The notes under the pieces are model-generated. The model made no database searches. It was not told the origin of the DNA and saw nothing but the letters and a program-made list of their open reading frames with translations. Made by a program: the position numbers and the translations under genes. A DNA stretch of 64,000 nucleotides from an uncultured Bacteroidales bacterium (lineage in GTDB: Bacteria > Bacteroidota > Bacteroidia > Bacteroidales > P3): positions 33,944 to 97,943 of the forward strand of contig CAMOOR010000002.1 of the NCBI GenBank assembly GCA_946621635.1, given 5' to 3'. Shown here one piece after another: positions 2,220-31,864 of the stretch (position 1 is the stretch's first letter; the number at the start of each line of letters is the position of its first letter).

Positions 2220-5171
2220 ATGGCAAGTTTCAGACTGACAAAAGTGGCCAAGGATTTTAACGTGGGCATCCAGACCCTCGTGGACTACCTTGCCAAGAAG
2301 GGGCATCAGGTCGACGCCAACCCCAATACGAAGATTAGCGAAGAGCAGTATGAACTGCTGGCCACAGCTTTCCAGGGCGAACGCAAGGTGAAAGAGGAGG
2401 CCGACAAGATAGAGCTCGTTGCAAGCAGCAACCGGGTGGTGGAACTTGCCAGCAAGGACGAGTCCGACGAGGAAAAGGAAGAGGTCATCATCAAGAACTA
2501 CTCCTCTTCCAAAGCACAGGCCGAGGGCAAGGCCGAAGCCGCCGTGGAGGCCCCTATCGCCGCCGAGCCGGAGCCCGAGCCCGAACCCGAGCCCGAACCG
2601 GAGCCCGCGGCACCCGCACCCCAGGCCGAAGAGCCTGCCGAGGAGGAGCCCGTGGCATCGCAGTCCAAACCCGAAGAAGAGAATGAGGAGGAGGAAGAAG
2701 AGTCCGAGGACACCGCCGAAGCCGACAGCACGCCCGCTGCCGAAAGCAACAGTCCCTTCAAGGTGGTGGGCACCGTGGACCTCAGCGCCATCAACCAGCG
2801 CATGCGTCCCGACAAGAAGAAACGCAAGAAGGGCGAGAAACGCGAACCCGCCATCTCGCCTGCCGCCGCCGCCAAGCCCAAGGGCAGCGCCCCCGCCCCC
2901 AAGCCCGCTCCGGCACCCAAGCCCGAACCCGTCGAGCCTGCCAAACCCGCCGAGCCTGCCAAACCGGAGCCCGAGTTCATCGAGACCCAGTACACCAAGC
3001 TTGAAGGCCCCAAAGTGCTGGACAAAATCGACCTCAGCCAGTTCTCCAAGGACGGTGCCGACACCCCCGGCAGCAAGCGCAAGCGCAAACACCAGAAGAA
3101 GGAAGCCGTCAGCGCACAGGAGGTGAAGAAGATTGGCGCCGAGGTGGCCAAGAAGGAAAACAAGGAGAAGGAAAAGGCCAAGAAGGAGAGCCAGAAGAAC
3201 GCCGCCCAGCAGCAGGCTCCCAGCAAGAAGAAGAAAAAGAAAGAGGAGAAGAAGCCCGTCGAGATTGATGACAACGAAATCGAGAAGCAGATCCGCGACA
3301 CGCTGGCCCGCCTCTCGCCCCTCGGCAAATCGAAGACCTCCAAGCACAACCGCGAGAAGCGCCAGAAGGTGCACGCCCAGATGGAAGAGGAGCTCCAGCA
3401 CGAGATGGAGCAGCAGAACGTGCTGCAGGTGACGGAGTTCGTCACCGCCAACGAGCTGGCCACCATGATGAACGTGCCGGTGACCAAGATTATCGCCACC
3501 TGCATGTCGGTCGGCATCTTCGTCAGCATCAACCAGCGCCTCGACGCCGAGACCATCAAGCTCATCGCCGACGAGTTCGGCTTCGAGGTGAGCTTCGCCT
3601 CGGAGGATGTGGTCAACACCATCCACAAGATCGAGGAGGAAGACCGTCCCGAGGACCTCGTGCCCCGCAACCCCATCATCACCGTCATGGGCCATGTGGA
3701 CCACGGTAAGACCTCGCTGCTCGACTATATCCGCAAGACCAACGTCATCGCCGGCGAGGCGGGAGGCATCACCCAGCACATCGGTGCCTACGAGGTGCAG
3801 ACCGCCGACGGCCGCAAAATCACCTTCTTGGATACCCCCGGTCACGAGGCCTTCACCGCCATGCGTGCCCGCGGTGCCAAGATGACGGATATTGCCATCA
3901 TCGTCATCGCCGCCGACGACAAGATTATGCCGCAGACCGTCGAGGCCATCAACCACGCCCAGTCGGCCGGTGTGCCCATCGTCTTCGCCATCAACAAGAT
4001 CGATAAACCCGGCGCCGACCCCGACCGCATCAAGACCGAGCTGGCCAACATGAACCTGCTCATCGAGGAATGGGGCGGCAAATACCAGAGCCAGGACATC
4101 AGTGCCAAGAAGGGCATCGGTGTCGAAGAGCTGCTGGAGAAAGTCATCCTGCAGGCCGACATCATGGAGCTCAAAGGCAACCCCAACAAGCGCGCCAAGG
4201 GTGTGGTCATCGAGAGCGCCCTCGACAAGGGCCGTGGCTACATCGCCAAGCTCCTCGTGCAGGACGGCACCATCCGCAAGGGCGACCCCATCGTGGCCGG
4301 TGCCATCGCTGGCCGTGTGCGTGCCATGTACAACGAGCGCAACCAGGAGGTTATGTCCGCCGGTCCCTCGCAGCCTGTGCTGCTGCTGGGCCTCACCGGC
4401 GCCTGCCAGGCTGGCGACACCTTCAACGTCATGGAGAACGAAAAGGAAGCCAAGGACATCGCCGCCAAGCGTACCCAGCTTGCCCGCGAGCAGGGTCTGC
4501 GCACCCAGACGCACCTCACGCTCGAGGAGATCGGCCGTCGCCGCGCCCTGGGCAACTTCAAGGAACTCAATATCATCGTCAAGGGCGATGTGGACGGCTC
4601 CGTGGAAGCCCTCAGCGACTCGCTCATCAAACTCGGCACCGAGGAGGTGCAGGTCAACGTCATCCACAAGGGTGTGGGCCAGATCTCGGAGAACGACGTC
4701 ACGCTGGCCATGGCCTCCGACGCCATCATCATCGGCTTCCAGGTGCGTCCTTCCGTTGGCGCCCGCAAGATGGCCGAGACCGAGCACATCGACATCCGCC
4801 TCTACAGCATCATCTACGACGCCATCAACGAGCTCAAGGACGCCATCGAGGGCATGCTCGCCCCCGAGACGCAGGAGAAGATTGTGGCCAACCTCGAGAT
4901 CCGCGAGACCTTCAAGATCTCCAAGGTGGGCACCATCGCCGGCTGTATGTGCCTCGACGGCAAAATCAACCGACAGAGCAACATCCGCATCATCCGCGAC
5001 GGCATCGTGGTCTACACCGGCAAGCTCGCCTCCCTCAAGCGCTTCAAGGACGACGTCAAGGAGGTGGTCAGCGGCCAGGACTGCGGCCTGAACATCGAAA
5101 ACTACAACGACATCAAGGTCGGCGACATCGTCGAAGCCTACGAGGTCATTGAGATCAAGCGCAAGCTTTGA
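2220..5171 (+). CDS. infB: Translation initiation factor IF-2
   Basis: 983 aa with a low-complexity Pro/Glu/Lys-rich N-terminal linker. The GTPase core has [19 protein letters not shown] and NKID motifs, followed by typical IF-2 C-terminal domains. Confidence 0.96.
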
Positions 5172-5199
5172 TAGGTTATGGGTTATAGGTTATAGTTTG
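5172..5199 (+). repeat. Heptamer tandem repeat (TAGGTTA-like x4) immediately after the infB stop codon
   Basis: Reading gives taggtta tgggtta taggtta tagtttg, starting one nt after the TGA at 5169-5171. Confidence 0.85.
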
Positions 5200-5205
5200 T
5201 ACTAA

Positions 5206-5295
5206 GCCCCGCAGGGGCAACAGCGAATAGGCAGGGGTGAAGCGCAGCGTAACCCCTGCACACCCAACCACCCACCACCCAAGCCCCGCAGGGGC
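5206..5295. repeat. Cluster of three GC hairpins (GCCCCGCAGGGGC twice, flanking GCAGGGGT-N13-ACCCCTGC)
   Basis: Hairpins lie at 5206-5218, 5231-5259 and 5283-5295. The first and third have identical sequence. Confidence 0.7.
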
Positions 5296-5310
5296 GGCAG
5301 AAAATAAGAA

Positions 5311-5892
5311 ATGACAAAGAATCTCTACATAATAGCAGGTTGCAACGGAGCTGGCAAGACGACAGCTTCCTACACCATACTGCCCGAGATTCTTGACTGC
5401 CGCGAGTTCGTCAATGCCGATGAAATAGCCCGTGGCCTCTCGCCATTCAACCCCAACGGCATGGCCATAGAGGCTGGTAAACTAATGCTGAAACGCATAA
5501 AGGAGCTGCTCAGCCGCGACGAATCCTTTGCCATAGAGACCACCCTCGCCACACGCTCTTATGTCAATCTTGTGCATCAGGCACAGGCCAAGGGCTATCT
5601 CGTTACTCTGGTGTTCTTTTGGCTCAACAGCCCAGAGTTGGCGCTACGGCGTATTGCCGAGCGTGTACAGAACGGTGGCCACGATATTCCAGAGCCAACA
5701 GCACGACGTAGGTACATTGCAGGTATTGACAACCTCTTTAACCTATACATCCCGGAGGTTGACTATTGGATGATTTATGACAATAGCGAGTCGCCCTGTC
5801 TTCCCGTTGCACAAGGGAAATCAACGAAGACATCAACCCTCTACGATGAGGACAAACTGAATAAAATCAAGAGTTATGTCAGAAAAAGATGA
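5311..5892 (+). CDS. Zeta-toxin-like / AAA-family P-loop kinase (COG4185-type)
   Basis: Walker A motif GCNGAGKTT lies near the N-terminus. The ~190-aa size and overall sequence look like zeta-toxin-family ATPases. Confidence 0.65.
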   Translation: MTKNLYIIAGCNGAGKTTASYTILPEILDCREFVNADEIARGLSPFNPNGMAIEAGKLMLKRIKELLSRDESFAIETTLATRSYVNLVHQAQAKGYLVTLVFFWLNSPELALRRIAERVQNGGHDIPEPTARRRYIAGIDNLFNLYIPEVDYWMIYDNSESPCLPVAQGKSTKTSTLYDEDKLNKIKSYVRKR

Positions 5893-6089: not shown

Positions 6090-6164
6090 GCTCCTGTAGT
6101 TCAATGGATAGAATAGAGGTTTCCTAAACCTTTGATCAGGGTTCGATTCCCTGCGGGAGTACCA
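6090..6164 (+). tRNA. tRNA-Arg (anticodon CCT), CCA encoded
   Basis: A manual cloverleaf fits. The acceptor pairs GCTCCTG with CGGGAGT, including two G-U pairs. The T arm is CAGGG-TTCGATT-CCCTG. The anticodon stem is GAGGT/ACCTT with loop TTCCTAA, giving anticodon CCT. Discriminator A and CCA are at 6161-6164. Confidence 0.9.
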
Positions 6165-7999: not shown

Positions 8000-8776
8000 A
8001 TGGCAAAGACCAACCCAACCCTCGGTCCTAATTCCGGCAAAATCGGCGACTTGGTATATTACACCCGCTTCGGCAAGGAGTTCGTACGCCGTAAGGCAGA
8101 GAACTTTAACGACTGCAAGTCGGATGCGCAGCTGCGCCAGCGCGCCCTCTTCAAGGCCACCCAGCAGACCGCAGCCCTATATGGTTCCATGTTACAACGC
8201 GGCCTCACCAAATATGCCCATAGCCATGGGCATACCGAAGCCAACGAGTTCTCGCGCCTCAACAAAGAATGCTTCACCTATGTCGGCGGCAAAGTCACCA
8301 TCGACTACCCAGCCCTGCAACTTGCGGTTGGCCCCCTGCCCTCAGTCGCATTCACTGCTTGCCACGCCGAAGGTCTCCACATCACGCTGACCTTCGACCC
8401 CAACCCCTCTGCCGACAAAGCCCGTCCCGACGATGTCGTCCACATCTATGCCGTCTCCCCGCAAGCCGAAGTCTGCATGCTTATGGCCAGCGTTGAACGC
8501 CAATCCGGACAGGCCGCCCTCGACCTCCCCGACCTGAGCGACGAGGTAACAACAGCATGCAAAAAAGAGCCAACGAATAAACCATTGAATAAGACTAACG
8601 CATTCATACACTCACGCACTAACGCAATCAACTATCACCTCTACGCCATCGTCGAAACAGCCAACACCGCCCCCATCCCCACCCTCTCTGCCGCCGAAAA
8701 GAAAGCCAACAAGCTCCACCGCAACATCAACCGCCGCGTATCCAACTCCATATTCATCGGCACCATTACCGCCTAA
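8000..8776 (+). CDS. DUF6266-like hypothetical protein (paralog of the minus-strand gene ending at 45082)
   Basis: The N-terminus MAKTNPTLGPNSGKIGDLVYYTRFGKEFVRRKAENFNDCKSDAQLRQRALFK aligns with MAKQRYGINDAYQGTVGTVIGYEWRGKWCLRARPRMVRNPRTEAQQVNREVFK of the second copy. The DUF6266 family name is from memory. Confidence 0.6.
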   Translation: MAKTNPTLGPNSGKIGDLVYYTRFGKEFVRRKAENFNDCKSDAQLRQRALFKATQQTAALYGSMLQRGLTKYAHSHGHTEANEFSRLNKECFTYVGGKVTIDYPALQLAVGPLPSVAFTACHAEGLHITLTFDPNPSADKARPDDVVHIYAVSPQAEVCMLMASVERQSGQAALDLPDLSDEVTTACKKEPTNKPLNKTNAFIHSRTNAINYHLYAIVETANTAPIPTLSAAEKKANKLHRNINRRVSNSIFIGTITA

Positions 8777-8871: not shown

Positions 8872-10092
8872 ATGGCGAAACCAACATGTATAGATCTATT
8901 TGCGGGCTGCGGGGGACTCTCTCTCGGCTTGTACCTTGCCGGATGGCAAGGCCTTTTCGCCATTGAAAAAAACGCATTCCCATTTGAGACGCTAAAGCAC
9001 AACCTTGTTGACAATAAGAAACACTTCGATTGGCCGGACTGGCTGCCGCAAACCAACCACGACATAAACGAGGTGCTGGAGAAATATCAGGACCAACTGA
9101 AAGCCTTGCGGGGCAAAGTGGATTTGGTGGCTGGTGGGCCTCCGTGCCAAGGGTTTTCTATGGCCGGCAAACGTGTCGAAGACGATGTGCGCAACCAGCT
9201 TGTCTTCTCCTACATAAAGTTCATCGATTTTGTGCGTCCCCGCATGCTCCTCTTCGAGAATGTCAAAGGTTTTACCTATGCATTTGACAAAAAGAATGAC
9301 AGCGGCGCTGAACCCTACTCGCATAAGGTGATTAGAGGATTGCAACAATTGGGATACAATGTCAAACCCCACGTTTTTGACTTCTCCAATTATGGGGTTC
9401 CTCAACGGCGCAAACGTTTCATATTAGTTGGAGTCCAAGATGGGTTAGGTAGCCCTGACAACTTTGAGCAACTGTTGTTGACCCATCGTGATGCCTTCCT
9501 GAAAAGCAAAGGCTTAAAGCCTAATGTCACACTGAAGGAAGCCATATCCGACCTGCTCCGCAGCAACGGTGAACTTCCTACTTCGGACCGCAAAGGCTTC
9601 AATTCCGGAGTATATGGCAATGCCCAGTTGAGCAACTACGGAAAAGCGATGCGCGGAGATTATCCAAAGACACACACCATTCCCGACAGCCACAGTTTTG
9701 CCCATCATACACCCGAAAAGATTGCATTATTCCAACGCCTATTGGCCGAATACCAACCCCGAGGCAAACGCATTGATGGCAAAGCTCGCGAGGCTTGGGG
9801 CATCAAGCAAAGAGGAATAACAGTGTTAGACCCCGATGCCGTTTCACCAACTATAACTGGACAGCCTGACGACTACTTGCATTATTCAGAGCCCCGCATC
9901 ATGACCGTCCGTGAGTGTGCTCGCATTCAATCGTTCCCTGATTGGTACGAGATAAGAGCAAAATACACCACTGGCGGAGATATGCGCAAGTTTGAGGTAC
10001 CACGCTACTCTCAGGTCGGCAATGCCATACCTCCTCTCTTTGCCGAGCAGGCTGGAATTGTTTTAAAGGAGATGTTGCAGAATGAAAGATAA
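8872..10092 (+). CDS. dcm: DNA (cytosine-5)-methyltransferase
   Basis: All canonical m5C-MTase motifs are present: I DLFAGCGGLSLG, IV GGPPCQGFS, VI LLFENVKGF, VIII QRRKRFILVG, IX TVRECARIQSFPDWY, X QVGNAIPPLFA. Confidence 0.93.
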   Translation: MAKPTCIDLFAGCGGLSLGLYLAGWQGLFAIEKNAFPFETLKHNLVDNKKHFDWPDWLPQTNHDINEVLEKYQDQLKALRGKVDLVAGGPPCQGFSMAGKRVEDDVRNQLVFSYIKFIDFVRPRMLLFENVKGFTYAFDKKNDSGAEPYSHKVIRGLQQLGYNVKPHVFDFSNYGVPQRRKRFILVGVQDGLGSPDNFEQLLLTHRDAFLKSKGLKPNVTLKEAISDLLRSNGELPTSDRKGFNSGVYGNAQLSNYGKAMRGDYPKTHTIPDSHSFAHHTPEKIALFQRLLAEYQPRGKRIDGKAREAWGIKQRGITVLDPDAVSPTITGQPDDYLHYSEPRIMTVRECARIQSFPDWYEIRAKYTTGGDMRKFEVPRYSQVGNAIPPLFAEQAGIVLKEMLQNER

Positions 10093-12448
10093 TCTACAAT
10101 TCCGTGTTAGTGCAGAACTGAAAAACATTCTGGGTCGGGATTTGATTACAAGTCCCGACATCGCCATATTGGAGTTGGTCAAGAACTCATACGATGCCCA
10201 TGCTACCAAAGTGGAAATCACTTTTGACGACGACTATATTGCCATAGCTGATAATGGGAAGGGCATGTCGAAAGACGACTTAATCAACAAATGGTTGTTT
10301 GTCGCCTATTCTGCCAAGAGCGATGGAACGGAAGACAAATCCTATCGTAGTAAGTTCAAACGCCATTACGCAGGCGCCAAAGGCATTGGCCGAATGTCCT
10401 GCGATCGATTGGCTCGTTACCTCACCCTTACCACACGAAGTGTGGAAGAAAACAAGACGGAAATTCTCAATGTTGATTGGAATGTTTTCGAGATTGACAA
10501 GCAGAAGGAGTTTGACACAGTCAATATCCCCCATGAAACAAAAGACGACCTCACAAAGTTTCCGTTGGATTCCCCCACTGGAACCATTCTAGAGTTTACA
10601 GGCCTACATCTTCCATGGAGCCGTGAGGACATTAAACGACTTCGAAAGTCTCTGGAAAAGATGATTAATCCATTCTCAGGAACGGATGATGATTTCCAAA
10701 TTGAGATCATTGCTCCAGCAATGAAAGAGGATGATGAGAATACAGAGTCTCCACATGAAGTGGTTAATGGTATTGTCGAAAACACCATTGCCGATGTTCT
10801 AAAGCTAAAAACCACCCAAATAGAAAGTCAGATAAAAAACGGCATGATTTATACTTCTTTAACCGACCGTGGTGTTAAGATGTATGAAATCGAAGAACAT
10901 AACAGTGTTTATTCAAAATTAGCGTCTGCTTCTATTAGTTTATTCTTTCTAAATCGAGCAGCCAAATATAATTTTACTGCAAGAATGGGTATCGAACCGG
11001 TTAACTATGGTAATGTTTTTTTGTTCAGAAACGGTTTTAGAATTTTACCATTCGGTGATTATAACGATGATAGCTGGGGATTGAACCAAAGACAACAACA
11101 AGGTTATAATCGTCGTTTAGGTACCCGTGATTTGTTTGGACGAGTGGATGTTGAAACAGACGATGTGGATTTGATTAAGGAAGTTTCAAGTCGCGATGGA
11201 GGGTTAATCAAGACTGATGCTTCACAACAATTGATGAACTATTTTACAGAGACTCATAAACGGTTGGAACGCTATGTGGTTGGCGTTTTATGGGGAGAAG
11301 GGTTCATAAGAAAAGAGTATTTTGTCAATCAAAGTGCAGCTGAGAGGGCCCGAGAAAAATTAAAAGAAACGGACAAAGACTTGGAATCTGCTGATCACTT
11401 ATATTCAAACATTGGTAGTAAGATTGATTTCATGCAACTTATCCGTTCGCTCGTAAATGACAATTCCATCGATGTAAAGTATTACAATGAGGAATTGGCA
11501 GACATTGTTTCCAATCCTTCAGAGACGGAAGTGATTCAAGCGCAGATGTTTGATGATGTCCGAAAGATGGCCGAAAAAACCAACGATGCTGCTTTATTGG
11601 ACAAGATAGCCGACTTCGAGCGTCACATGGATGAACTACGCTGCCAGAAAGAGGATGCTGAACGCAAAGAAAAAGAAGAAAGAAAAGCGAAAGAACTAGC
11701 GGAACGAAAAGCAAAAGAGGAGGAAGAGAAACGCAAGAAAGTCGAAATAGAGCTTAAACAGCGAACAAAACAAAACCTATTTCTGCAATCTGTCGGGAGT
11801 CTTGACACCGACCGTATATTAAAATACCACCACGATATACGCATTCATGCAGCAACTATACATAACACGATTGGCCAGATTTTAAGAAAAGCGAATCAGG
11901 GTTCATTGTCAACAGAGGATACTATCAAGATGATTGAACGTATCTCCCGCGCTAATGACAAGATAACCTCTATCGCCCAATTTGCCACCAAAGCGAACTA
12001 CAGCATCAATGCAGACACAATCAATGCAGACATTGTAAATTACATCGATGAATATATCAACAATGTACTGCCGGAGTTCTATGGAGATATTCAATTGCAT
12101 TGTAGTAATAAATCCTGCACAAAGGTCATTGCTTTCTCTCCATTGGAAGCAAGTATATTCATAGACAATCTTGTATCAAATACAGTTAAGGCAAATGCCA
12201 AGCATTTTGACGTGGTTTTCGAAAAGGACAATGATGCTGTATGTATGACCATCACGGATGATGGCGACGGCCTATCGCCAGATATTGCCGACCCGAATAG
12301 CATTCTGGAGAAAGGTTACACAACAACCAATGGTTCCGGATTAGGCCTCTATAATGTGGCCTCATTTGTCAAGACGGTTATGCATGGCTCTGTTTCTGTT
12401 GAAAACAAGCTGGGCAAGCAGGGATTTAAACTAAAAATAAAATTCTAA
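10082..12448 (+). CDS. Dual-GHKL protein: N-terminal MORC/MutL-like HATPase_c_3 module, coiled coil, then histidine-kinase core (H-box plus HATPase_c)
   Basis: The N-terminal Bergerat boxes are ELVKNSYDA, DNGKGM and GAKGIGR. A Lys/Glu coiled coil (ERKEKEERKAKELAERKAKEEEEKRKK) follows, then an H-box-like YHHDIRIHAATIHN. A second ATPase has NLVSNTVKA, DDGDGL and GSGLGL. The start codon overlaps the dcm stop by 11 nt. Confidence 0.75.
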   Translation: MKDNLQFRVSAELKNILGRDLITSPDIAILELVKNSYDAHATKVEITFDDDYIAIADNGKGMSKDDLINKWLFVAYSAKSDGTEDKSYRSKFKRHYAGAKGIGRMSCDRLARYLTLTTRSVEENKTEILNVDWNVFEIDKQKEFDTVNIPHETKDDLTKFPLDSPTGTILEFTGLHLPWSREDIKRLRKSLEKMINPFSGTDDDFQIEIIAPAMKEDDENTESPHEVVNGIVENTIADVLKLKTTQIESQIKNGMIYTSLTDRGVKMYEIEEHNSVYSKLASASISLFFLNRAAKYNFTARMGIEPVNYGNVFLFRNGFRILPFGDYNDDSWGLNQRQQQGYNRRLGTRDLFGRVDVETDDVDLIKEVSSRDGGLIKTDASQQLMNYFTETHKRLERYVVGVLWGEGFIRKEYFVNQSAAERAREKLKETDKDLESADHLYSNIGSKIDFMQLIRSLVNDNSIDVKYYNEELADIVSNPSETEVIQAQMFDDVRKMAEKTNDAALLDKIADFERHMDELRCQKEDAERKEKEERKAKELAERKAKEEEEKRKKVEIELKQRTKQNLFLQSVGSLDTDRILKYHHDIRIHAATIHNTIGQILRKANQGSLSTEDTIKMIERISRANDKITSIAQFATKANYSINADTINADIVNYIDEYINNVLPEFYGDIQLHCSNKSCTKVIAFSPLEASIFIDNLVSNTVKANAKHFDVVFEKDNDAVCMTITDDGDGLSPDIADPNSILEKGYTTTNGSGLGLYNVASFVKTVMHGSVSVENKLGKQGFKLKIKF

Positions 12449-13449: not shown

Positions 13450-14226
13450 ATGGTGAACAAACAAAAAAAATGGACCAGAGAAGAATTGATATTGGCACTG
13501 AGTGTGTACTTTCAGCTTCCTTTTGGACGACTAAACCACACCACGCCAGAGGTAAAAGAGCTGGCAAAAATATTAGGGCGTTCGGATAATTCTGCTGCTT
13601 TGCGTTTGTCTAATTTTGCTGCTTGCGACCCATACATTATCAATTCTGGACGTACGGGTATGCGTGCAGGGATTCCTGTGTGCAAACCCATTTGGGATGA
13701 ATTTGCCGATGACAAAGAACGACTGTTTAACGAGGCACAACATATCAAAGCTACACTACTCCAAAAGACAGTCGAGGAGACATTGAACATTTCCAAACAA
13801 GATCTTGAAGGGAAAGAGAGGTCTGTTGTCATCAAGCAACACGTTAACCAATCCGTGTTTCGTACGATGATACTCTTTAACTATGAAAATTGTTGTGCTA
13901 TTACTGGCATCAACATCCCAGAACTACTTGTTGCTGGTCATATTATACCCTGGGCAAACAGCACTCCTCAGCAAAAGTTAAATCCGGAAAATGGAATATG
14001 TTTATCCCCACTTTACGACAAGGCTTTTGATAAAGGCTTCATTACCATATCTCCGGATGATTACACTGTCCGTATTTCTTCCGCATTGCGTGAATACGAG
14101 AAAAAGGAATATTTCAACAAGCACTTTGGCAGTATCAATGGTCAAAGAATAAATATGCCTATAGAACACAAACCAAACCGAGACTATTTAGCTTACCATC
14201 GCGATAATATTTTCTTGGGGGATTAA
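13450..14226 (+). CDS. HNH endonuclease (HNH_2 / COG3440-type putative restriction enzyme)
   Basis: The C-terminal half has CCAITGINIPELLVAGHIIPW...NPENGICLSPLYDKAFDKGFITI, typical of the HNH_2 family. The N-terminal WTREELILALSVY region is common in stand-alone restriction-type HNH proteins. Confidence 0.85.
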   Translation: MVNKQKKWTREELILALSVYFQLPFGRLNHTTPEVKELAKILGRSDNSAALRLSNFAACDPYIINSGRTGMRAGIPVCKPIWDEFADDKERLFNEAQHIKATLLQKTVEETLNISKQDLEGKERSVVIKQHVNQSVFRTMILFNYENCCAITGINIPELLVAGHIIPWANSTPQQKLNPENGICLSPLYDKAFDKGFITISPDDYTVRISSALREYEKKEYFNKHFGSINGQRINMPIEHKPNRDYLAYHRDNIFLGD

Positions 14227-16112: not shown

Positions 16113-17126
16113 ATGACTAACGAAATTCAATTCATCTTATATAATCTTCCTGATAATGAAGGAAGTGTGCATGGTGTAGTGCAGGATGAGACTATATGGC
16201 TAACGCAAAAGGCGATGGCGCAGTTGTTTGGAGTGAACGTTCCTGCCATCAGCAAACATCTGAGAAACATATTCGACTCAGAAGAGTTGAACGAAAATGT
16301 GGTTGTTTCCAAAATGGAAATAACCACTGAACACGGAGCTATTGAAGGGAAAACACAGACCCACGAGGCCATGTTTTACAATCTTGACGCCATCATATCT
16401 GTCGGCTATCGCGTCAACTCTGCCAAAGCCACGCACTTCCGACAGTGGGCGACAAAAGTATTGAATGAGTATATCCGCAAGGGGTTTGTCTTGGACGACA
16501 ATAGGCTGAAACAAGGAGAGGCGGTGTTCGGCAAGGACTATTTCCGCGAGTTGTTGGAACGTATCCGATCCATCCGCGCCAGCGAACGACGCATCTGGCA
16601 GCAAATCACTGACATCTTCGCCGAGTGCAGTATAGACTACGACAAATCGTCGCCTGTAACTCAGGATTTCTACGCCATGGTGCAGAACAAATTCCACTAC
16701 GCTATCACCGGCAAGACGGCGGCGGAAATCATCTACACCTCCGCCGATCACACCAAGGAACACATGGGTCTGACGACTTGGAAGAACTCACCCGACGGAC
16801 GCATCCTAAAATCGGATGTCACCATAGCCAAGAACTATCTCGACGAACAACAGATACGCCGTTTGGAGCGTGCCGTAACGGGTTTCTTCGATTACATTGA
16901 GGACCTGGTGGAAACTGAGAACACTTTCACCATGGAGCAGTTCGCCGCCAGCGTCAACGAATTCCTGAATTTCCGTCGTTTCAAAATACTCCCCAACAAA
17001 GGCTCTATTTCTAAAACCATGGCCGAAGAAAAAGCTTCCGCCGAGTACGATATTTTCAACCGTACACAAAAGATAGACTCCGACTTTGACAAAGCTGTGC
17101 GGCAACAACTCGGAGACAAAAAGTAG
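16113..17126 (+). CDS. RhuM-family virulence/defence-island protein
   Basis: 337 aa with WLTQKAMAQLFGVNVPAISKHLRNIF...YNLDAIISVGYRVNSAKATHFRQWATKVL..., characteristic of RhuM. Confidence 0.85.
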   Translation: MTNEIQFILYNLPDNEGSVHGVVQDETIWLTQKAMAQLFGVNVPAISKHLRNIFDSEELNENVVVSKMEITTEHGAIEGKTQTHEAMFYNLDAIISVGYRVNSAKATHFRQWATKVLNEYIRKGFVLDDNRLKQGEAVFGKDYFRELLERIRSIRASERRIWQQITDIFAECSIDYDKSSPVTQDFYAMVQNKFHYAITGKTAAEIIYTSADHTKEHMGLTTWKNSPDGRILKSDVTIAKNYLDEQQIRRLERAVTGFFDYIEDLVETENTFTMEQFAASVNEFLNFRRFKILPNKGSISKTMAEEKASAEYDIFNRTQKIDSDFDKAVRQQLGDKK

Positions 17127-17130
17127 TTCT

Positions 17131-18035
17131 ATGACCGACACCATGACACCCTAGCAGCGGCACCGCTGCATGTCGCACATACGCAGCAAGGCCACGAAGC
17201 CGGAACTGCTGGTGCGGCGGTGGCTGTGGAGGCATGGGTATAGGTATCGGTTGAATGTGAGGAGTGTGCCGGGGAAGCCGGACATCGTGTTGAGGACTTA
17301 CCGCACGGCAATATTCGTCAACGGGTGCTTCTGGCACGGACATATCGTGAGAATGCGCGAATGTGGGAATGCGTTAATGCGTGAGTCAGAGGAACTGCAA
17401 AGCGGAAATAATCTACAAGATTTACAAGATTTCGCAAGTGCAGAGCGCGAGCAGGAGAATAAAGATATACCGAGCTCCCCCTGCTGCAAGATTCCGCAGA
17501 CCAACCGCAGCTTCTGGCTGGAGAAAATACGCCGCAACCAAGAGCACGACCAGCGCAACTACGCCCTGCTGCAGGACAACGGCTGGCAGGTCATCGTCGT
17601 ATGGGAGTGCCAACTGAAGTCCGACAAGATAGAGCGCACCATGCGCGAGGTGGAGCTGCTGCTGAACACCAATCTGCTATCCCGGTATAAACACACCCCC
17701 ATCCCTTACCCCACCGAGGAGGACGACCAATTGCCTATGGCCGCCGAGGATTAAAGATTCCACAGGTACTCTTTCAGGGGGACTTTGCCGGAGGGGGTGA
17801 GGTGGATGCCTTCGGAGGTCAGGAGGGAGGCTTGGGCGGGGTAGTGCGGGGCAAGGCGGCCGGAGGCGTTGACGACGCGGTGACAGGGGAGATCGGCATC
17901 GGGAGCCGTTCGCATGATGCGGCCCACCAGGCGGGAATGATTGGGCCAGCCACACAAGGCGGCGATACGGCCATAGGTAAGCACCCGCCCACGCGGTATC
18001 TGGCGGACGATGTCGTAGACCTCGGCTCGAAGGGT
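17131..18035. repeat. Segmental duplication, copy 1 (vsr plus convergent MGMT-like gene)
   Basis: It aligns by eye with 19117-19986 over most of its length, starting exactly at the vsr ATG. The aligned stretches I compared carry scattered substitutions. Confidence 0.85.
17170..17754 (+). CDS. vsr: Very-short-patch repair endonuclease, copy 1 (5'-truncated by an in-frame TAG, with a 43-codon in-frame insertion; possibly decaying)
   Basis: Vsr signature: SHIRSKATKPE...PGKPDIVL...AIFVNGCFWHGH...KIPQTNRSFWLEKIRRNQEHDQRN...GWQVIVVWECQL. The paralog's start (ATG 17131) is followed here by TAG at 17152-17154, where copy 2 has GAG. Confidence 0.7.
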   Translation: MSHIRSKATKPELLVRRWLWRHGYRYRLNVRSVPGKPDIVLRTYRTAIFVNGCFWHGHIVRMRECGNALMRESEELQSGNNLQDLQDFASAEREQENKDIPSSPCCKIPQTNRSFWLEKIRRNQEHDQRNYALLQDNGWQVIVVWECQLKSDKIERTMREVELLLNTNLLSRYKHTPIPYPTEEDDQLPMAAED

Positions 18036-18068
18036 GGCCTCGCTCGGCTGTGCTGCAACGTTTATCAT
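17751..18068 (-). CDS. MGMT-family protein (O6-alkylguanine transferase DNA-binding domain, PCHRV retained), copy 1
   Basis: EVYDIVRQIPRGRVLTYGRIA...DLPCHRVVNASG. The start is ambiguous (18068 or 18116). Its stop overlaps the vsr stop in a TTAA tetranucleotide. Confidence 0.75.
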   Translation of the reverse strand: MINVAAQPSEATLRAEVYDIVRQIPRGRVLTYGRIAALCGWPNHSRLVGRIMRTAPDADLPCHRVVNASGRLAPHYPAQASLLTSEGIHLTPSGKVPLKEYLWNL

Positions 18069-18180
18069 GAACGAATAACGCAATGCGTTGCCAATTATTG
18101 TTTCTCCTTTTATCATATTCCCCTGCTCGCGCTACGCGCTTGCGAGATCTCGTAGATCTTGTGGATTAACAGAAAAAATA

Positions 18181-18212
18181 TTTGGCCATTCCGGCGAAAA
18201 GTGTTACTTTTG
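18181..18212 (+). promoter_or_regulatory. Bacteroidota-type promoter (TTTG-N20-TACTTTTG) for the solute-binding protein gene
   Basis: TTTG sits at 18181-18184 and TActTTTG at 18205-18212. Confidence 0.5.
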
Positions 18213-18246
18213 CATTCGAAATAACGAGACAACGAACGAAAATCCT

Positions 18247-19077
18247 ATGAAGCAAAATAGAATCAAAATCTGGCTGCTCGTCGTGCTCCTGGCGCTGGCG
18301 GGAACGACGGCACTGGCGGCGTGCAGCGAGAAAGAGGACTCCCTCGCGGGGAGACCCACCGTTGAGCGCATCGAGCAGCGGGGGACGCTGCTGGTCGGCA
18401 CCACGGGCGACTACCGTCCGCTGTCGTTCCGCGAGCCGGAGACGGGCGAGTACTGGGGCTTCGCCATTGAGTTGGCCGAGGCCATGGCCAAGCGGATGGG
18501 CGTGGCGGTGGAGTTCGTGCCCACCTCGTGGCCCACGCTGACCGCCGACGTGCAGGCCGAGCCACAGCTGTTCGACATGGCCATGGGCGGCATCACCATC
18601 ACCGAAACGCGCTGCGCCACGATGCTGATGAGCGAAGGCTACCTGGCCAACGGCAAGACCATCCTCTGCCGCACGGAAGATACCGTACGCTTCCACTCGC
18701 TGGAGGACATCGACCGCCCGGAGGTGCGCGTGATGGTCAACCCCGGCGGCCTCAACGAGCAGTTCGCCCGCCAATACCTTACCCACGCCACCCTTATCGT
18801 ACACCCCAACAACGAGGAGATTCCCTCGCTCATCGCCGAGGGCGAAGCCGACGTGATGATCACCGAGATAACGGAAGCCCCCTACTATGTGCAGACCGAC
18901 GCGCGCCTGGCGGCGCCGCTACTCGACGCGCCCTTCACCCACGGCGAGATCGGCGTGCTGATGCGACAGGGACAGGACGACCTGCTGGCCCTCGTCAACA
19001 ACATCATCCGCCAGATGAAGTCCGACGGCACCCTCCGTCAACTGACCGAGAAGTACGGCCTGGTGTACGCCTACTGA
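18247..19077 (+). CDS. Periplasmic solute-binding lipoprotein (SBP_bac_3, amino-acid / cyclohexadienyl-dehydratase-like)
   Basis: The signal peptide has a lipobox (LAAC). LLVGTTGDYRPLSF...WGFAIELAEAMAKRMG...GGITITETR is typical of family-3 binding proteins. No permease or ATPase gene lies nearby. Confidence 0.8.
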   Translation: MKQNRIKIWLLVVLLALAGTTALAACSEKEDSLAGRPTVERIEQRGTLLVGTTGDYRPLSFREPETGEYWGFAIELAEAMAKRMGVAVEFVPTSWPTLTADVQAEPQLFDMAMGGITITETRCATMLMSEGYLANGKTILCRTEDTVRFHSLEDIDRPEVRVMVNPGGLNEQFARQYLTHATLIVHPNNEEIPSLIAEGEADVMITEITEAPYYVQTDARLAAPLLDAPFTHGEIGVLMRQGQDDLLALVNNIIRQMKSDGTLRQLTEKYGLVYAY

Positions 19078-19116
19078 AAAACAGAAACCAAGACCCACAG
19101 AATACCGCAACACCCC

Positions 19117-19662
19117 ATGACCGACACCATGACATCCGAGCAGCGGCACCGCTGCATGTCGCACATACGCAGCAAGGCCACGAAGCCGGAACTGCTGGTG
19201 CGGCAGTGGCTATGGGGGCATGGGTATCGATACAGATTGAACGTAAAGAGTGTGCCGGGCAAGCCGGACATCGTGCTGCGGCCCTACCGCACGGCGATAT
19301 TCGTCAACGGGTGCTTCTGGCACGGACACGGTGTGCGGCCGGAGGCCGCACAAATTGAAAATTCAAAATTGAAAATTGAAAGCTCCCCCTGCTGCAAGAT
19401 TCCACAGACCAACCGCAGCTTCTGGCTGGAGAAGATACGCCGCAACCAGGAGCGCGACCAGCGCAACTACGCCCTGCTGCAGGACAACGGCTGGCAGGTC
19501 ATCGTCGTCTGGGAGTGCCAACTGAAGCCCGACAAGATAGAACACACCATGCGTGAGGTGGAGCTGATGTTAAATAGCAACATGCTTTCGATTTACAAGC
19601 ATCATCCAGTCCCATACTCCACAGAGGAAGAGATGCCTATGCCGAAGGCGGCGGAAAACTGA
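19117..19662 (+). CDS. vsr: Very-short-patch repair endonuclease, copy 2 (full N-terminus, with a 17-codon in-frame insertion)
   Basis: MTDTMTSEQRHRCMSHIRSKATKPE...CFWHGH-[insert]-SSPCCKIPQTNRSFWLEKIRRNQERD...VVWECQL. Confidence 0.85.
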   Translation: MTDTMTSEQRHRCMSHIRSKATKPELLVRQWLWGHGYRYRLNVKSVPGKPDIVLRPYRTAIFVNGCFWHGHGVRPEAAQIENSKLKIESSPCCKIPQTNRSFWLEKIRRNQERDQRNYALLQDNGWQVIVVWECQLKPDKIEHTMREVELMLNSNMLSIYKHHPVPYSTEEEMPMPKAAEN

Positions 19663-19986
19663 TGGAGTTTAGCTCCAACAAGGCAATAAATCTTGCAATT
19701 ATTCTATCACCCACAAGTACTCTTTCAGCGGGACATTGCCGGAGGGGGTGAGGTGGATGCCTTCGGCGGACAGGAGGGAGGCTTGGGCGGGGTAGTGCGG
19801 GGCGAGGCGGCCGGAGGCGTTGACGACGCGGTGGCAGGGAAGATCGGCATCGGGAGCCCCACGCATGATGCGGCCCACTAGGCGCGCATGATTGGGCCAG
19901 CCGCATAAGGCGGCGATACGGCCATAGGTGAGTACCCGCCCGCGCGGTATCTGTCGGACGATGTCGTAGACCTCGGCACGAAGGGT
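19117..19986. repeat. Segmental duplication, copy 2 (vsr plus convergent MGMT-like gene)
   Basis: See copy 1. Confidence 0.85.
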
Positions 19987-20031
19987 CTCTTCTGTGGGTT
20001 GCACTCTCATACCTTCAGGAACGCTATCCAC
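19699..20031 (-). CDS. MGMT-family protein (PCHRV retained), copy 2
   Basis: It is near-identical to copy 1 from TLRAEVYDIVRQIPRGRVLTYGRIA onward. The start is 20031 or 20010. Confidence 0.75.
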   Translation of the reverse strand: MDSVPEGMRVQPTEETLRAEVYDIVRQIPRGRVLTYGRIAALCGWPNHARLVGRIMRGAPDADLPCHRVVNASGRLAPHYPAQASLLSAEGIHLTPSGNVPLKEYLWVIE

Positions 20032-20127
20032 GCCATAATATTGCCACGGCGCGTCGGTCGAAAAAAGATTTTCCCTTCTATGTCAAATAAAATGTGTATT
20101 TTTGCACTTCAATTTATAGACAGAAAG

Positions 20128-21372: not shown

Positions 21373-24309
21373 ATGACAGAAAAACAACAAACCGCAGCCG
21401 CCAAAGCTTTTTCCAGACGCTGGTCGGGCCATGGATATGAAAAAGGGGAGACGCAGTCCTTTTGGTCGGACCTACTGCGCACTGTCTTCGACAGCGAGAA
21501 GGCGGGCGTCACAATTGAATATGAAAAACCTATAAAGAAAGGCAAAGGCGAGACACAATACATCGACGCCTACATTCCTGCCACAAAGGTGCTCATCGAG
21601 CAAAAGGGTGCAGGTATCGAATTGTCACGGCACCAGCAACGGAAAAACCAAATTCCTATCACACCCTACGGCCAGGCAAAACAATATGCCGATAACCTAC
21701 CATACTCGGAAAAACCCAGATGGATCATCACTTGCAACTTCCGAGAAATATGGGTATACGACATGGACATGGTCCTTCCGCAGCCCGAGAAGATAATGCT
21801 TTCTGACCTCGGAACCGAGTGGCATCGCTTGCGGTTTCTAACTGATACAGGACGGGGCATGCAATCAAAAGAGGTCCGGGTATCCATCAAGGCCGGCCAG
21901 CTCGTGGGCGAAATCTATGATGCTCTGCTTAAACAGTACGCCATACCCTCCGACGAGTCACTTCGCTGGCTCAACATCCTGTGTGTACGTCTGGTTTTCT
22001 GCCTCTACGCCGAGGATGCAGGCATCTTCCGCCGCGACCTTTTCCACGACTACCTCGCTAACTGCGCCACCTCCGACCTACGCGGTGCCATCATCGACCT
22101 ATTCAAGACCCTCAACACTCCCGAACATCAGCGTAGCCCCTATCTGAATCAGAACCTTGCCGCTTTCCCCTATACCAATGGAGGTCTCTTCGCCGAAGAG
22201 ATAGAAGTGCCTCAATTTACCGACGAAATTAAATCCCTGCTCATCAAACACGCCAGCGACGATTTCGATTGGAGCGAGATTTCTCCCACTATTTTCGGCG
22301 CGGTGTTCGAGAGCACGCTCAATCCCGACACTCGTCGCAGCGGGGGCATGCATTATACAAGCATAGAAAACATCCACAAAGTCATCGACCCCCTGTTTTT
22401 AGACAGTCTAAGGAACGATTTAAACAAAGCCTTGTCCGCCAAGGAGAAACGGTCGGACAAACTGAGAGCATTCCAGCAACGACTTGCTTCGCTGACCTTC
22501 CTCGACCCCGCATGTGGTAGCGGCAATTTCCTTACGGAAACCTATCTTTCACTTCGACGACTTGAAAACCAAGCCATCCGCGCTCTCTACGGAGAAGGAA
22601 TCCTAGGTTCTGTGCATAATCCCGTAAAGGTCAGCATAGGACAGTTTTTCGGTATTGAAATCAATGATTTTGCTGTCACCGTAGCTACCACAGCCCTTTG
22701 GATTAGCGAAGCACAGATGCTCGCAGAAACCGAGAAGATTGTACAACACGACATCGATTTTCTGCCACTGAAAAGCTACACAAACATTCACGAAGGCAAC
22801 GCCCTGCGCATGGATTGGGATACCCTCTCACCATCCATGCCGGACAATCTCATCTACACCGACAAACTCAATATCTACCAGACCAACGACGACGAGACCA
22901 CCATCATGGTCTCCGAACCTCCCTCTCCTTATGGCAGTGTGCACAAAGAGTTAAACGTCATTGCCCACCAGGTGGAATACCGTAACATCAACGAACTACA
23001 TCGTCATCCCGTCGCCCCTATCGCCTACGACTACATCATGGGCAATCCCCCGTTCGTCGGCGCCCGCATGATGAGTGAGGGACAGAAAAGCGATGTGGTT
23101 TCCGTGTTTGGCCCACACTGGAAGAACGTGGGCAACCTCGACTATGTCTGTTGCTGGTACAAGAAAGCCTCCGACCTGATGCTCGCCAACCCGGGCACTC
23201 GCACAGCACTGGTATCGACCAACAGCATCACACAGGGCGAGCAAGTGGCTAATCTCTGGCAGCCCCTGCTGCAGCATGGTCTGCATATAGATTTTGCATA
23301 TCGCACCTTCCGCTGGGACAGCGAATCGTCGCTCAAGGCCCATGTGCATTGTGTCATCGTTGGATTCAGCCACTCCAACACTCGTCCTCGAATAATCTTT
23401 GATGGCGACAGCCGTACCGAAGCCTCCAACATCAATGCCTACCTGATTGACGCACCCAACATCTACGTCGGCAGCCGTCAACATCCACTGTGCGACGTGC
23501 CTCCCCTGCTTACCGGAAGTCAGCGCATCGACAACGACCTCTTCATGTTCACCGACAAGGAGAAAGATGCCTTTATAAAAAGGGAGCCGCTGTCGTCAAA
23601 GTTTTTCCATCGCTGGTATGGTGCTGACGAGTTTATCAATAACCGTCCAAGATGGGTGCTATATCTCGGAAACGCCACTCCGGCCGAACTTCATGCCATG
23701 CCCCACTGCAGAAAAATACTACAGCAGGTGAAAGAATACCGCATGGCCAGCGGCAGAAAACAAACCCAGAAAGCCGCTCTCACGCCGAACAAGTTCGGGC
23801 TGGAAGTGATTCCCAAGGGGAACTACATGATTGTCCCTGTCGTTTCATCCGAACGACGCTTGTATGTGCCCATGGGATTCATGTCGCCCGAAGTCATGTG
23901 CAGCAACCAGGTAAACCTCATCCCCGACGCTACCCTCTACCATTTCGGCGTGCTCGAAAGCAGCGTGCACATGGCATGGATGCGGGCGGTGTGTGGCAGA
24001 CTGGAAATGCGTTATCGCTATTCCAAGGACATTGTCTACAACAACTTCCCCTGGCCGGAGCCAACGGAAGAACAGAAAGCCCGGATCGGACAGACCGCGC
24101 AGGCCATCCTCGATGCCCGCGCCCTCTACCCCGACAGCTCCCTGGCCGCTCTCTACGACGACCTGACCATGCCATCCGAACTGCGCAAGGCACACCAGGA
24201 TAACGACTGCGCCGTGATGCAAACCTATGGCTTCGACCCCAAATCCACCTCCGAAAGCCAGTGCATTGCAACCTTGTTCAAACTCTATCAAGAACACTCC
24301 AATGGCTGA
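21373..24309 (+). CDS. MmeI-family Type IIL restriction-modification enzyme (fused endonuclease plus N6-adenine methyltransferase plus specificity domain)
   Basis: It resembles MmeI along its whole length as I remember that sequence. The nuclease motif is YIDAY...VLIEQKG (D..ExK). Other matches are LVFCLYAEDAGIF, LAAFPYTNGGLF, MTase motif I FLDPACGSGNFL, motif IV GNPPFVG, STNSITQGEQV and LYDDLTMPSELRKAH. Confidence 0.9.
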   Translation: MTEKQQTAAAKAFSRRWSGHGYEKGETQSFWSDLLRTVFDSEKAGVTIEYEKPIKKGKGETQYIDAYIPATKVLIEQKGAGIELSRHQQRKNQIPITPYGQAKQYADNLPYSEKPRWIITCNFREIWVYDMDMVLPQPEKIMLSDLGTEWHRLRFLTDTGRGMQSKEVRVSIKAGQLVGEIYDALLKQYAIPSDESLRWLNILCVRLVFCLYAEDAGIFRRDLFHDYLANCATSDLRGAIIDLFKTLNTPEHQRSPYLNQNLAAFPYTNGGLFAEEIEVPQFTDEIKSLLIKHASDDFDWSEISPTIFGAVFESTLNPDTRRSGGMHYTSIENIHKVIDPLFLDSLRNDLNKALSAKEKRSDKLRAFQQRLASLTFLDPACGSGNFLTETYLSLRRLENQAIRALYGEGILGSVHNPVKVSIGQFFGIEINDFAVTVATTALWISEAQMLAETEKIVQHDIDFLPLKSYTNIHEGNALRMDWDTLSPSMPDNLIYTDKLNIYQTNDDETTIMVSEPPSPYGSVHKELNVIAHQVEYRNINELHRHPVAPIAYDYIMGNPPFVGARMMSEGQKSDVVSVFGPHWKNVGNLDYVCCWYKKASDLMLANPGTRTALVSTNSITQGEQVANLWQPLLQHGLHIDFAYRTFRWDSESSLKAHVHCVIVGFSHSNTRPRIIFDGDSRTEASNINAYLIDAPNIYVGSRQHPLCDVPPLLTGSQRIDNDLFMFTDKEKDAFIKREPLSSKFFHRWYGADEFINNRPRWVLYLGNATPAELHAMPHCRKILQQVKEYRMASGRKQTQKAALTPNKFGLEVIPKGNYMIVPVVSSERRLYVPMGFMSPEVMCSNQVNLIPDATLYHFGVLESSVHMAWMRAVCGRLEMRYRYSKDIVYNNFPWPEPTEEQKARIGQTAQAILDARALYPDSSLAALYDDLTMPSELRKAHQDNDCAVMQTYGFDPKSTSESQCIATLFKLYQEHSNG

Positions 24310-24377
24310 CCGCCAACGCTGCGGGAACGAGAAGCCATTTTGTCAAACCAACAGACCAACGAAGGGCCTACCAATGC

Positions 24378-24448
24378 CCTACCAACTCCTACGATGGTAG
24401 GAGTTGGTAAGGAGTTGGTAAGGAGTTGATAAGGGGATGGTAAGGGGG
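24378..24448 (+). repeat. Palindrome plus 11-bp GGTAAGG array element, copy A
   Basis: ccctaccaactcctac-gatg-gtaggagttggtaagg forms a 13-bp stem. It is followed by ggtaaggagtt / ggtaaggagtt / gataaggggat / ggtaaggggg. The left flank also carries complementary 11-mers (ctaccaatgcc, ctaccaactcc). Confidence 0.85.
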
Positions 24449-24613
24449 TTATGGCTCTAAAAGCCATGTTTTTGCGGGGTTGGAGGCGGGAAACGAGGCG
24501 TTTGGGGCGAAAAACGGGTTTTTCAGGGAGGTGTTTTTGTCAAATCGGAAGGGGAAGGCGGGGGCCGGAGGAGGGGTCCGGGGAGGGGTTCGGATGGCGA
24601 AGTGAAGAAAAAT

Positions 24614-30330: not shown

Positions 30331-30332
30331 CT

Positions 30333-30374
30333 CAGTGTTAAGTGTTTAGTGTTAAGTGTTCAGTGTTAAGTTTT
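30333..30374. repeat. Heptamer tandem repeat (NAGTGTT x6) making up the M16-VWA intergenic spacer
   Basis: cagtgtt aagtgtt tagtgtt aagtgtt cagtgtt aagtttt lies between the VWA start (30330) and the M16 stop (30382). Confidence 0.9.
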
Positions 30375-31860: not shown

Positions 31861-31864
31861 TGCT

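Follow-up and report, generated by a model that had tools for sequence, protein, structure and literature searches.

In the Vsr endonuclease of Escherichia coli (PF03852; 1VSR, 1CW0, 1ODG), the conserved positions presumably comprise the catalytic Asp51 and His69, the intercalating Phe67 and Trp68, and four zinc ligands, which we take to be Cys66, His71, Cys73 and Cys117. Part of these residue roles, and the location of the zinc motif in the β3-α2 loop, are drawn from PMC3239194. Both in this enzyme and in canonical Bacteroidales Vsr, only one or two residues separate the His ligand from the Cys ligand. Here we analyse two vsr genes in a 64,000-nt stretch of DNA (the window) from an uncultured, rumen-type Bacteroidales bacterium (assembly GCA_946621635.1, contig CAMOOR010000002.1, positions 33,944 to 97,943 of the forward strand), in which this short segment gives way to translated, repeat-built inserts. 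With E. coli Vsr the window genes share the predicted fold, both catalytic residues (Asp and His), the two intercalating ones (Phe and Trp) and the positions of the zinc ligands; a C5 methyltransferase gene occurs in their neighbourhood. The subfamily to which they belong differs by a CC-K-I-P motif after the loop and by 11 to >100 hypervariable loop residues. We consider it probable that, in this Vsr subfamily of the Bacteroidales (CFWHGH-loop-CCKIP), the segment is an expansion loop under weak constraint, written by replication slippage and filtered mainly to stay open. It looks like a tolerated, fast-changing loop, and not like a new domain or a mobile element. Full-text literature searches turned up no earlier account of such an insertion in Vsr.

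Several described systems share one or another aspect of this arrangement. Plasmodium proteins carry low-complexity insertions between conserved blocks, and the vsr loop resembles these as a hydrophilic, fast-evolving segment, apparently generated by slippage, that loops out of a conserved fold. It differs in being bacterial, in occupying a single site between metal ligands, and in having a DNA period of 7 nt rather than 3 nt. Rickettsia palindromic elements (Ogata et al., 2000) reportedly belong to one conserved family, measure 100-150 bp and are scattered over many genes. The likeness lies in hairpin DNA placed in frame within a conserved protein gene and translated as an extra surface segment that the fold tolerates; the vsr inserts, by contrast, are short, mutually unrelated, repeat-based and found at one codon of one gene family. 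Comparable short tandem repeats are also the STRR sequences of cyanobacteria. According to the summary of Mrazek et al. (2007) in PMC4679880, the simple repeats with 5-11-nt units that prokaryotes most often carry are those of heptanucleotides, for which polymerase slippage is given as the cause, while repeats inside genes normally have units in multiples of three. The tandem 7-nt units and the slippage-type length changes of the vsr inserts are like those of these prokaryotic repeats, in the form in which PMC4679880 presents them, and like those of the TAACTGA repeats (PMC4679880), which the spacer arrays of the window also resemble in lying just upstream of start codons. However, the prokaryotic repeats are mainly intergenic, whereas the vsr 7-nt arrays are translated, with units adjusted to be stop-free in the frame that is read. 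The phase-variable tracts that Haemophilus and Neisseria carry in surface and restriction-modification genes (PMC8262952 and PMC12721329, among others) also combine a non-triplet repeat with a methylation-linked open reading frame (ORF), such that a slip of one unit gives a null allele; unlike those contingency loci, the vsr tracts are short and imperfect, and 99% of the assembled alleles are in frame. Slippage of simple repeats and tolerated in-frame insertions are thus already known, and what is unusual is that a 7-nt repeat is translated, and stays in frame, at a place between two metal ligands.

The two genes, their inserts and the repeats from which these are built are the following.

17131-17754, plus strand: vsr copy 1 (Pfam PF03852, E 1.5e-25), with TAG at codon 8
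17344-17472, plus strand: copy-1 insert, 129 nt or 43 codons, between the His codon (17341-17343) and SSPCC
17347-17386, plus strand: array of five 8-nt units (GNGNGAAT type), encoding VRMRECGNALMRE, as read from the sequence
19117-19662, plus strand: vsr copy 2 (Pfam PF03852, E 5.7e-31), at the resident ortholog position
19330-19380, plus strand: copy-2 insert, 51 nt or 17 codons, with the peptide GVRPEAAQIENSKLKIE
19333-19351, plus strand: perfect hairpin GTGCGGCC-GGA-GGCCGCAC with an 8-bp stem (minimum free energy of the copy-2 insert -17.7 kcal/mol)
19352-19381, plus strand: heptamer array (Tandem Repeats Finder, TRF: period 7, 4.3 copies, 91% matches), second unit ATTCAAA
2167-2192, minus strand: intergenic array (TTTCAAT)x3.7 in the nusA-infB spacer, the copy-2 unit on the opposite strand

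A first reading of this DNA, made without database searches (the sequence-only reading), had placed unrelated in-frame inserts at the same codon of both copies, inside the zinc-binding loop. Both statements hold. The CFWHGH and SSPCCKIPQTN blocks are identical in the two copies, the alignment breaks exactly between CFWHGH and SSPCCKIP, and the intervening segments, which are stop-free and a multiple of three in length, do not align together. Alignment to E. coli Vsr (1CW0) halts at CFWHHH and resumes at FKVP, which places the insert in the β3-α2 loop with the zinc motif. Both genes score above the PF03852 gathering threshold, the Pfam profile terminates at the insert, and their products are putative T:G mismatch endonucleases of the Vsr family. 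Across 49 aligned sequences with very different inserts, D51, C66, F67, W68, H69, C92/C93 and E133-C134 are invariant and H71 nearly so. Structure prediction of both variants, which that reading had suggested, recovers the Vsr fold and leaves the loop without confident structure: outside the inserts the AlphaFold models match the Vsr fold (copy 2 matches 1cw0_A with E 1.3e-9 and TMt 0.72, and 1vsr with TMt 0.77), and pLDDT falls below 50 throughout the core of either insert (residues 77-88 for copy 2, most of 63-95 for copy 1), so that no structural claim is made for the loop.

The composition of each insert also agrees with the earlier description, apart from one detail. The copy-1 insert uses 8-nt and 9-nt units, not heptamers: the 8-nt units read GTGAGAAT/GCGCGAAT/GTGGGAAT/GCGTTAAT/GCGTGAGT, and the TACAAGATT repeat is present in 2.1 copies at 17414-17432 (TRF). 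In the database homologs P0057, P0058 and P0063, the module of the 8-nt array occurs as 2-3 tandem duplicates (GNALMRE); here and below, P denotes database proteins and L denotes contigs or loci of relatives. A relation of the 8-nt array to the array at 8594-8626 was rejected, the 17-nt match having an E value of 0.13, which is not significant. In copy 2 the hairpin is as described, and the array behind it has 4.3 copies rather than an exact (ATTGAAA)x4. A perfect (ATTGAAA)3 would carry an in-frame TGA, and the deviating unit ATTCAAA stands where this TGA would be read. The reverse complement of the copy-2 heptamer does recur in the nusA-infB spacer, where none is expected from shuffled sequence. 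The copy-1 insert is 98.5% identical in L081 and L082, and the copy-2 insert is identical in P0001, P0002 and P0013. No Rfam family was detected in positions 17000-20100 even at E up to 1, and the whole window yielded one tRNA only.

The site is highly variable across Bacteroidales, and hundreds of relatives have a stretch of their own at this codon, nearly always in frame. The site could be read in 78 of 80 species-level genomes, all of them metagenome-assembled genomes or isolates of rumen or gut Bacteroidales, and a metagenome scan anchored on both flanks, with a gap of 39-69 nt allowed, returned 122 alleles; these population data are assemblies, not reads. The metagenome survey of length polymorphism that had been proposed thus gave about 100 different peptides among 122 assembled alleles. 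In the genome set, canonical Vsr has 1-2 residues at the site (CFWHGH-EG-C-x5-P), and 47 of the 51 members of the CFWHGH...CCKIP subfamily have 11-47 aa; the range across the subfamily is 0-116 aa. The 120 closest database proteins (61-92% identical, 174-247 aa) owe their entire length variation to the insert codon. Clusters at 50% identity were searched exhaustively. Of the best 150, many of which could not be scored, 58 have two loop residues and 35 have one, and inserts of 7-116 aa are found in about 22, almost always together with the CC[KR][IL]P motif. The largest insert seen, at 688-1035 of L213, measures 348 nt (116 aa) and consists of (GAGTTAG)x4.9 followed by a 54-nt unit in 4.5 copies.

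Comparison with orthologs, suggested at the outset as the way to tell a repeat insertion from a conserved domain, gave a divided answer. Many taxa carry an insert at this codon, which therefore characterises the lineage as a whole and does not go back to two private events; the inserts show neither homology nor conservation, and so do not form a lineage-specific domain. Flanks that are 90-97% identical to copy 1 or copy 2 over 145 residues yet enclose unrelated inserts (IENSKLK, GNALM, VESGK, NEEL, SAEREQEN), and at the DNA level flanks of about 95% identity directly border wholly different inserts. In a neighbour-joining tree of the flanks (about 120 residues, midpoint rooting), which cannot count loop gains and losses, the loop-less CCKIP genes are nested among loop-bearing ones.

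The inserts share a layout and a period at the DNA level. The usual order is the His codon, one codon, a short GC-rich palindrome, a heptamer array, the codons for E-N/S-S-x, and TGCTGC. Examples of the palindrome, besides that of copy 2, are GTGCGC-GAA-GCGCAC and CTGCGC-TTC-GCGCAG, and the arrays consist of 3-5 purine-rich heptamers (ATTGAAA, AATGAAG, ATGTAAG, GTGGAAA or AATTTAC). Of 151 unique insert sequences, 107 had their best period at lag 7, as did 4 of 302 control segments taken from these genes, and mean lag-7 identity was 0.45 compared with 0.22-0.24 in the controls. A 7-nt period is not attributable to selection on the peptide and is therefore a DNA-level signature. The GC content is 45% in inserts and 55-58% in flanks. 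Hairpins are enriched and not universal: folding against shuffles gave z < -2 in 17% of inserts and in 1-3% of controls (p about 1e-5), with mean z of -0.67 and 0, respectively. The idea that the arrays are stop-free in all three frames was rejected, as off-frame stops occur in inserts at twice their frequency in flanks; being so common, they indicate that the units are adjusted frame by frame to stay open in the frame used. No conserved DNA target was found beside the insert, where the codons for C, F, H, C and C have a normalised entropy of 0.83-0.99, and only the downstream AAG and ATT codons are somewhat fixed. With synonymous-site entropy normal there, a site-specific insertion target or homing site was rejected. 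An intein, intron or translational bypass element was likewise ruled out, the inserts reaching down to 11 aa, being always in frame and stop-free, and matching no Rfam family.

Selection on the loop is seen in the frame and hardly in the peptide. Insert length is divisible by three in 121 of 122 metagenome alleles and in all 77 genome alleles. In alignable insert pairs, 26/31/43% of the differences fall at codon positions 1/2/3, compared with 23/11/66% in the flanks, showing constraint on the peptide to be strongly relaxed, though not zero. The loop peptide most likely has little or no sequence-specific function.

Footprints of slippage and of template switching are found in individual alleles. 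The 58-nt insert of L205 is a member of the 51-nt NLQFDDLQF family with one extra heptamer, and is frameshifted; L210 has four tandem copies of the whole hairpin-plus-array module, including the E-N-S end; and 21-nt duplications are also seen. In L211 a forward and a reverse array form a long hairpin, and L212 contains an inverted array. The hairpin loop occurs both as GGA and, in three alleles, flipped to TCC, giving GVRPEAAQ or GVRPPAAQ, a change that template switching inside a palindrome classically produces. A snap-back origin of the hairpin from the CFWHGH codons was considered (7 of 10 matches by eye) and is not used as evidence. Neighbouring DNA is also represented in the inserts, as follows.

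17409-17461, plus strand: 53-nt unit in the copy-1 insert, containing TACAAGATT x2 and encoding NLQDLQDFASAEREQEN; 85% inverted match to 18116-18168
18116-18168, minus strand: intergenic copy of the 53-nt unit, immediately upstream of the ATL1 frame (E 1.7e-5)
17751-18116, minus strand: alkyltransferase-like gene ATL1, MGMT DNA-binding domain only (PF01035, E 8e-22), convergent with vsr copy 1
19699-20031, minus strand: alkyltransferase-like gene ATL2, MGMT DNA-binding domain only (PF01035, E 6e-22), convergent with vsr copy 2

The 53-nt unit is also found upstream of alkyltransferase-like (ATL) genes in L081 and L083, on the opposite side of vsr, and the 54-nt unit repeated 4.5 times in the L213 insert is related to it. 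One or two copies lie in the ATL upstream regions of L081 (2731-3387), L083 (2747-3387) and the window (18040-18260), in each of which a small palindrome, AACGCATTGCGTT, directly precedes the ATL start codon. The vsr genes of L008 and L010 contain, in frame, perfect 28-nt palindromes of a family (GTAGAGACGC...GCGTCTCTAC) whose stem recurs at 3159-3186 of L070 and at 44528-44723 of the window. This last region holds four hairpins, GTAGAGACGC-N8-GCGTCTC(TAC), arranged as two inverted pairs.

The reading that we favour would join these observations as follows. The segment between the His and Cys zinc ligands of the β3-α2 loop would be a lineage-specific, weakly constrained expansion, whose DNA behaves like a micro- or minisatellite inside a coding sequence, with units of about 7 nt and at times of 8 nt or about 54 nt. 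The arrays, usually placed after a short GC-rich palindrome, would grow, shrink, invert and be replaced through slippage and template switching, the latter at times copying neighbouring non-coding DNA. The peptide most likely forms a flexible and hydrophilic segment on the protein surface, looping away from the zinc site, and selection would mainly keep the frame open and the enzyme core intact. Under such selection, close relatives, and the paralogs of the window, would be left with unrelated peptides of differing length, and the loop DNA would evolve like the repeat-rich spacers of the same genome. The location and variability of the segment, the 7-nt period, the traces of slippage and template switching, the kept frame and the relaxed constraint across codon positions are results of the analysis; we infer from them tolerance of the loop and not a function for it, and a turnover that comes mainly from slippage and not from recombination between old alleles. 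The slippage or insertion hot spot of the sequence-only reading is in this respect upheld by the variable length and sequence, the 7-nt period and the heptamer, module and loop-flip alleles; its second proposal, a small mobile repeat, is for the most part not.

Several points weigh against this reading. Third-position differences in inserts, at 43% against 33% if neutral, are still somewhat enriched. Only 4 of the 51 CCKIP-type genes have just EG, DG or TG at the site (HGH-EG-CCKIP in L059 and L074), so that almost none lack the loop; its ends are semi-conserved (x-V-x-h ... h-E-N/S-S-x-CC), and many loop peptides are β-hairpin-like, with a central NG/DG/SG turn. The near-universal retention, the semi-conserved ends, the turn motifs and the third-position enrichment together make a structural or functional need for a loop of about 11-22 aa plausible. 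Slippage of imperfect arrays of 3-5 units is expected to be slow and the turnover is fast, and recombination between long-lived alleles could lie behind part of it. Off-frame stops show no depletion in inserts, which prevents the arrays from expanding freely unit by unit. Moreover, the reading does not account for the choice of this loop over many other surface loops.

The strongest competitor takes the loop to be functional: a hypervariable arm under diversifying selection, forming a β-hairpin or flexible arm by the DNA-binding face, which would contact DNA or a partner protein (MutL, for example) or be attacked by inhibitors of phages or plasmids, with the repeat DNA generating the diversity. 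We regard this as unlikely, though less so than the alternatives that follow. The retention of the loop in 47 of 51 subfamily members, the semi-conserved ends and frequent central turn motifs, the roughly 100 distinct peptides in 122 alleles, the presence of several allele families on near-identical backgrounds, and the defence-gene surroundings (C5 methyltransferase, HNH, RhuM, MmeI-like) all fit such an arm. However, the low-complexity composition and the 7-nt period point to determinants at the level of DNA and not of peptide, the codon-position pattern lies near relaxed constraint with no excess of replacements, the AlphaFold models give the loop no confident structure, and the arm is without a known inhibitor or partner. 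A related and somewhat less probable idea is that the repeat tract is an evolved diversity generator, which remodels a surface arm of Vsr (for inhibitor escape or partner contacts) or occasionally switches vsr off.

That the inserts are small mobile or dispersed repeats (REP-like or akin to the Rickettsia elements), preferring this codon and tolerated in frame, is improbable. The recurrence of the 53-nt unit in the copy-1 insert and in ATL upstream regions, across three contigs, speaks for mobility, together with the L008/L010 palindromes of the GTAGAGACGC...GCGTCTCTAC family found again at 44528-44723 and in L070, the enrichment of hairpins in inserts, and the heptamer arrays of the same unit in intergenic spacers. 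To this extent the earlier suggestion of a mobile repeat keeps some ground. It loses most of it to the absence of any single insert family, the inserts being of many unrelated types, and to the lack of a conserved DNA target beside the site, of target-site duplications and of terminal repeats. Dispersed copies of the copy-2 hairpin were sought and not found: all 8 occurrences lie inside vsr in a 1.5-Mb sample that consists mostly of vsr neighbourhoods, and in which the part outside vsr is small. Nor is a transposase linked to vsr in the window; a Y1_Tnp gene adjoins vsr only in L210 and L118 (8786-10567 in L118). In L210 there is an overlap between vsr and the beginning of a gene whose 598-aa product combines WYL and Y1 (HUH) transposase domains. 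Neither the window nor the other loci contain a homolog of the WYL+Y1_Tnp protein of L210 and L118, and a link between this transposase and the vsr inserts was rejected for that reason.

It is very improbable that the heptamer tract is a contingency locus, in which Vsr is turned off and on as single units are gained or lost, with a change in C-to-T mutation rates at methylated sites. The ingredients are present, in that a unit that is not a multiple of three lies within the ORF of a DNA-modification-linked gene, off-frame stops are frequent enough for a slip to yield a null allele, and the truncated cluster representatives P0136 and P0173 diverge within the array. The single frameshifted allele, that of L205 with its extra heptamer, could nonetheless be an assembly error or a pseudogene; against a contingency locus stand 121 of 122 and 77 of 77 assembled alleles in frame, and short arrays of 3-5 imperfect units, by which they differ from the switch tracts that are known. 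Lastly, inversion by a site-specific recombinase of a segment (the vsr 3' half plus ATL1) bounded by the 53-nt inverted repeats at 17409-17461 and 18116-18168 is the least probable of these readings. The arms are 53 nt long, 85% complementary and 654 nt apart, and after an inversion the vsr 5' half would read in frame into the upstream ATG of the ATL1 ORF. However, the arms mismatch at 8 of 53 positions, a TAG interrupts the relevant frame in one of them, the segment was seen in one orientation only, no gene for a recombinase adjoins it, and a fusion of the Vsr N-terminal half with ATL has no evident function. The partner copy of L081 and L083, moreover, is found across vsr, where it precedes another ATL gene, so that the 53-nt unit tracks ATL leaders and is not part of a fixed cassette.

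The vsr gene and its convergent ATL gene form a unit that is present twice in the window, as vsr 17131-17754 (plus strand) with ATL1 17751-18116 (minus strand) and as vsr 19117-19662 (plus strand) with ATL2 19699-20031 (minus strand), separated by a solute-binding protein gene at 18247-19077. The insert flanks are 91% identical between the copies on the 5' side (17131-17342 and 19117-19328) and 84% identical on the 3' side (17473-17747 and 19381-19655), and ATL2 is 90% identical to 17760-18050, making ATL1 and ATL2 paralogs. Copy 2 is the resident ortholog, as shown by its position between SBP_bac_3 and aldo/keto-reductase genes, a synteny conserved in L085-L089 and L211; other strains carry different inserts at this same locus. 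In copy 1, codon 8 (17152-17154) is TAG where homologs have GAG, a nonsense change, and an open frame is available from Met14 (17170). The gene would thus be either N-terminally truncated, with a restart at Met14, or a pseudogene. A database protein of 194 aa, P0109, likewise begins at the Met equivalent to Met14. ATL genes recur 2-3 times around vsr in several contigs.

The surroundings of the vsr pair, between 6090 and 24309, consist of a tRNA (6090-6161) and then a run of defence-type genes, and may represent an integrated island.

8872-10092, plus strand: C-5 cytosine DNA methyltransferase (PF00145, E 2.5e-54), candidate Vsr partner by context
10082-12448: GHKL ATPase, a defence-type gene near the vsr pair
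13450-14226: HNH, likewise
16113-17126: RhuM, likewise
21373-24309: MmeI-like type IIG enzyme, likewise

The methyltransferase lies about 7 kb upstream of vsr, and one adjoins vsr only in the relative L210, where the gene order is methyltransferase-EcoRII-vsr (306-5537, the methyltransferase being of EcoRII type).

Other repeats of the window share features with the inserts. Besides the array in the nusA-infB spacer (2167-2192), heptamer arrays of ATAGGTT (5171-5195, at the infB stop), AGTGTTA (30332-30371, upstream of the minus-strand gene starting at 30330) and AGTTAAG (43206-43253, in the PBP1a-rlmN spacer) fill short operon spacers at stop or start codons, and these spacer arrays resemble the start-codon-proximal heptamer repeats of PMC4679880. 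Heptamers are also translated in two other ORFs, both on the minus strand: in gene 57882-58430 those at 58373-58401 encode the hydrophobic signal-peptide core MKRTALFLALFSSFLFPFSA, and in gene 59316-61079, whose product is PNGase-F-like, those at 60730-60760 encode EWKVENGKWK towards the N terminus. From these stretches, in-frame 7-nt repeats may be a genome-wide habit. An intergenic element of about 80 nt is present in five copies (24376-24454, 31792-31870, 37532-37610, 45398-45476 and 55422-55500) and consists of a palindrome (CTCCTACCA and TGGTAGGAG) followed by about four 11-nt units (TTGGTAAGGAG) resembling the palindrome 3' arm, that is, a hairpin and a tandem array as in the vsr inserts; it has no Rfam match.

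For practical purposes, the site discriminates very well between strains, with about 100 alleles in 122 contigs, and can serve as a marker; it also calls for a warning in annotation, since the Pfam model ends at the insert and Vsr lengths range over 174-288 aa. A repair nuclease that appears to tolerate 11 to >100 arbitrary residues between two structural-zinc ligands may also be useful for protein engineering. For the biology of gut and rumen Bacteroidales, the loop is an unusually clear natural case of a translated 7-nt microsatellite, and bears on how slippage, palindromes and template switching act in their coding DNA. If the loop were functional or switchable, the instability of a simple repeat would be tied to the control of very-short-patch repair; and if the tract were indeed a diversity generator, a repair enzyme would be a contingency gene that tunes mutation at methylated cytosines in rumen Bacteroidales.

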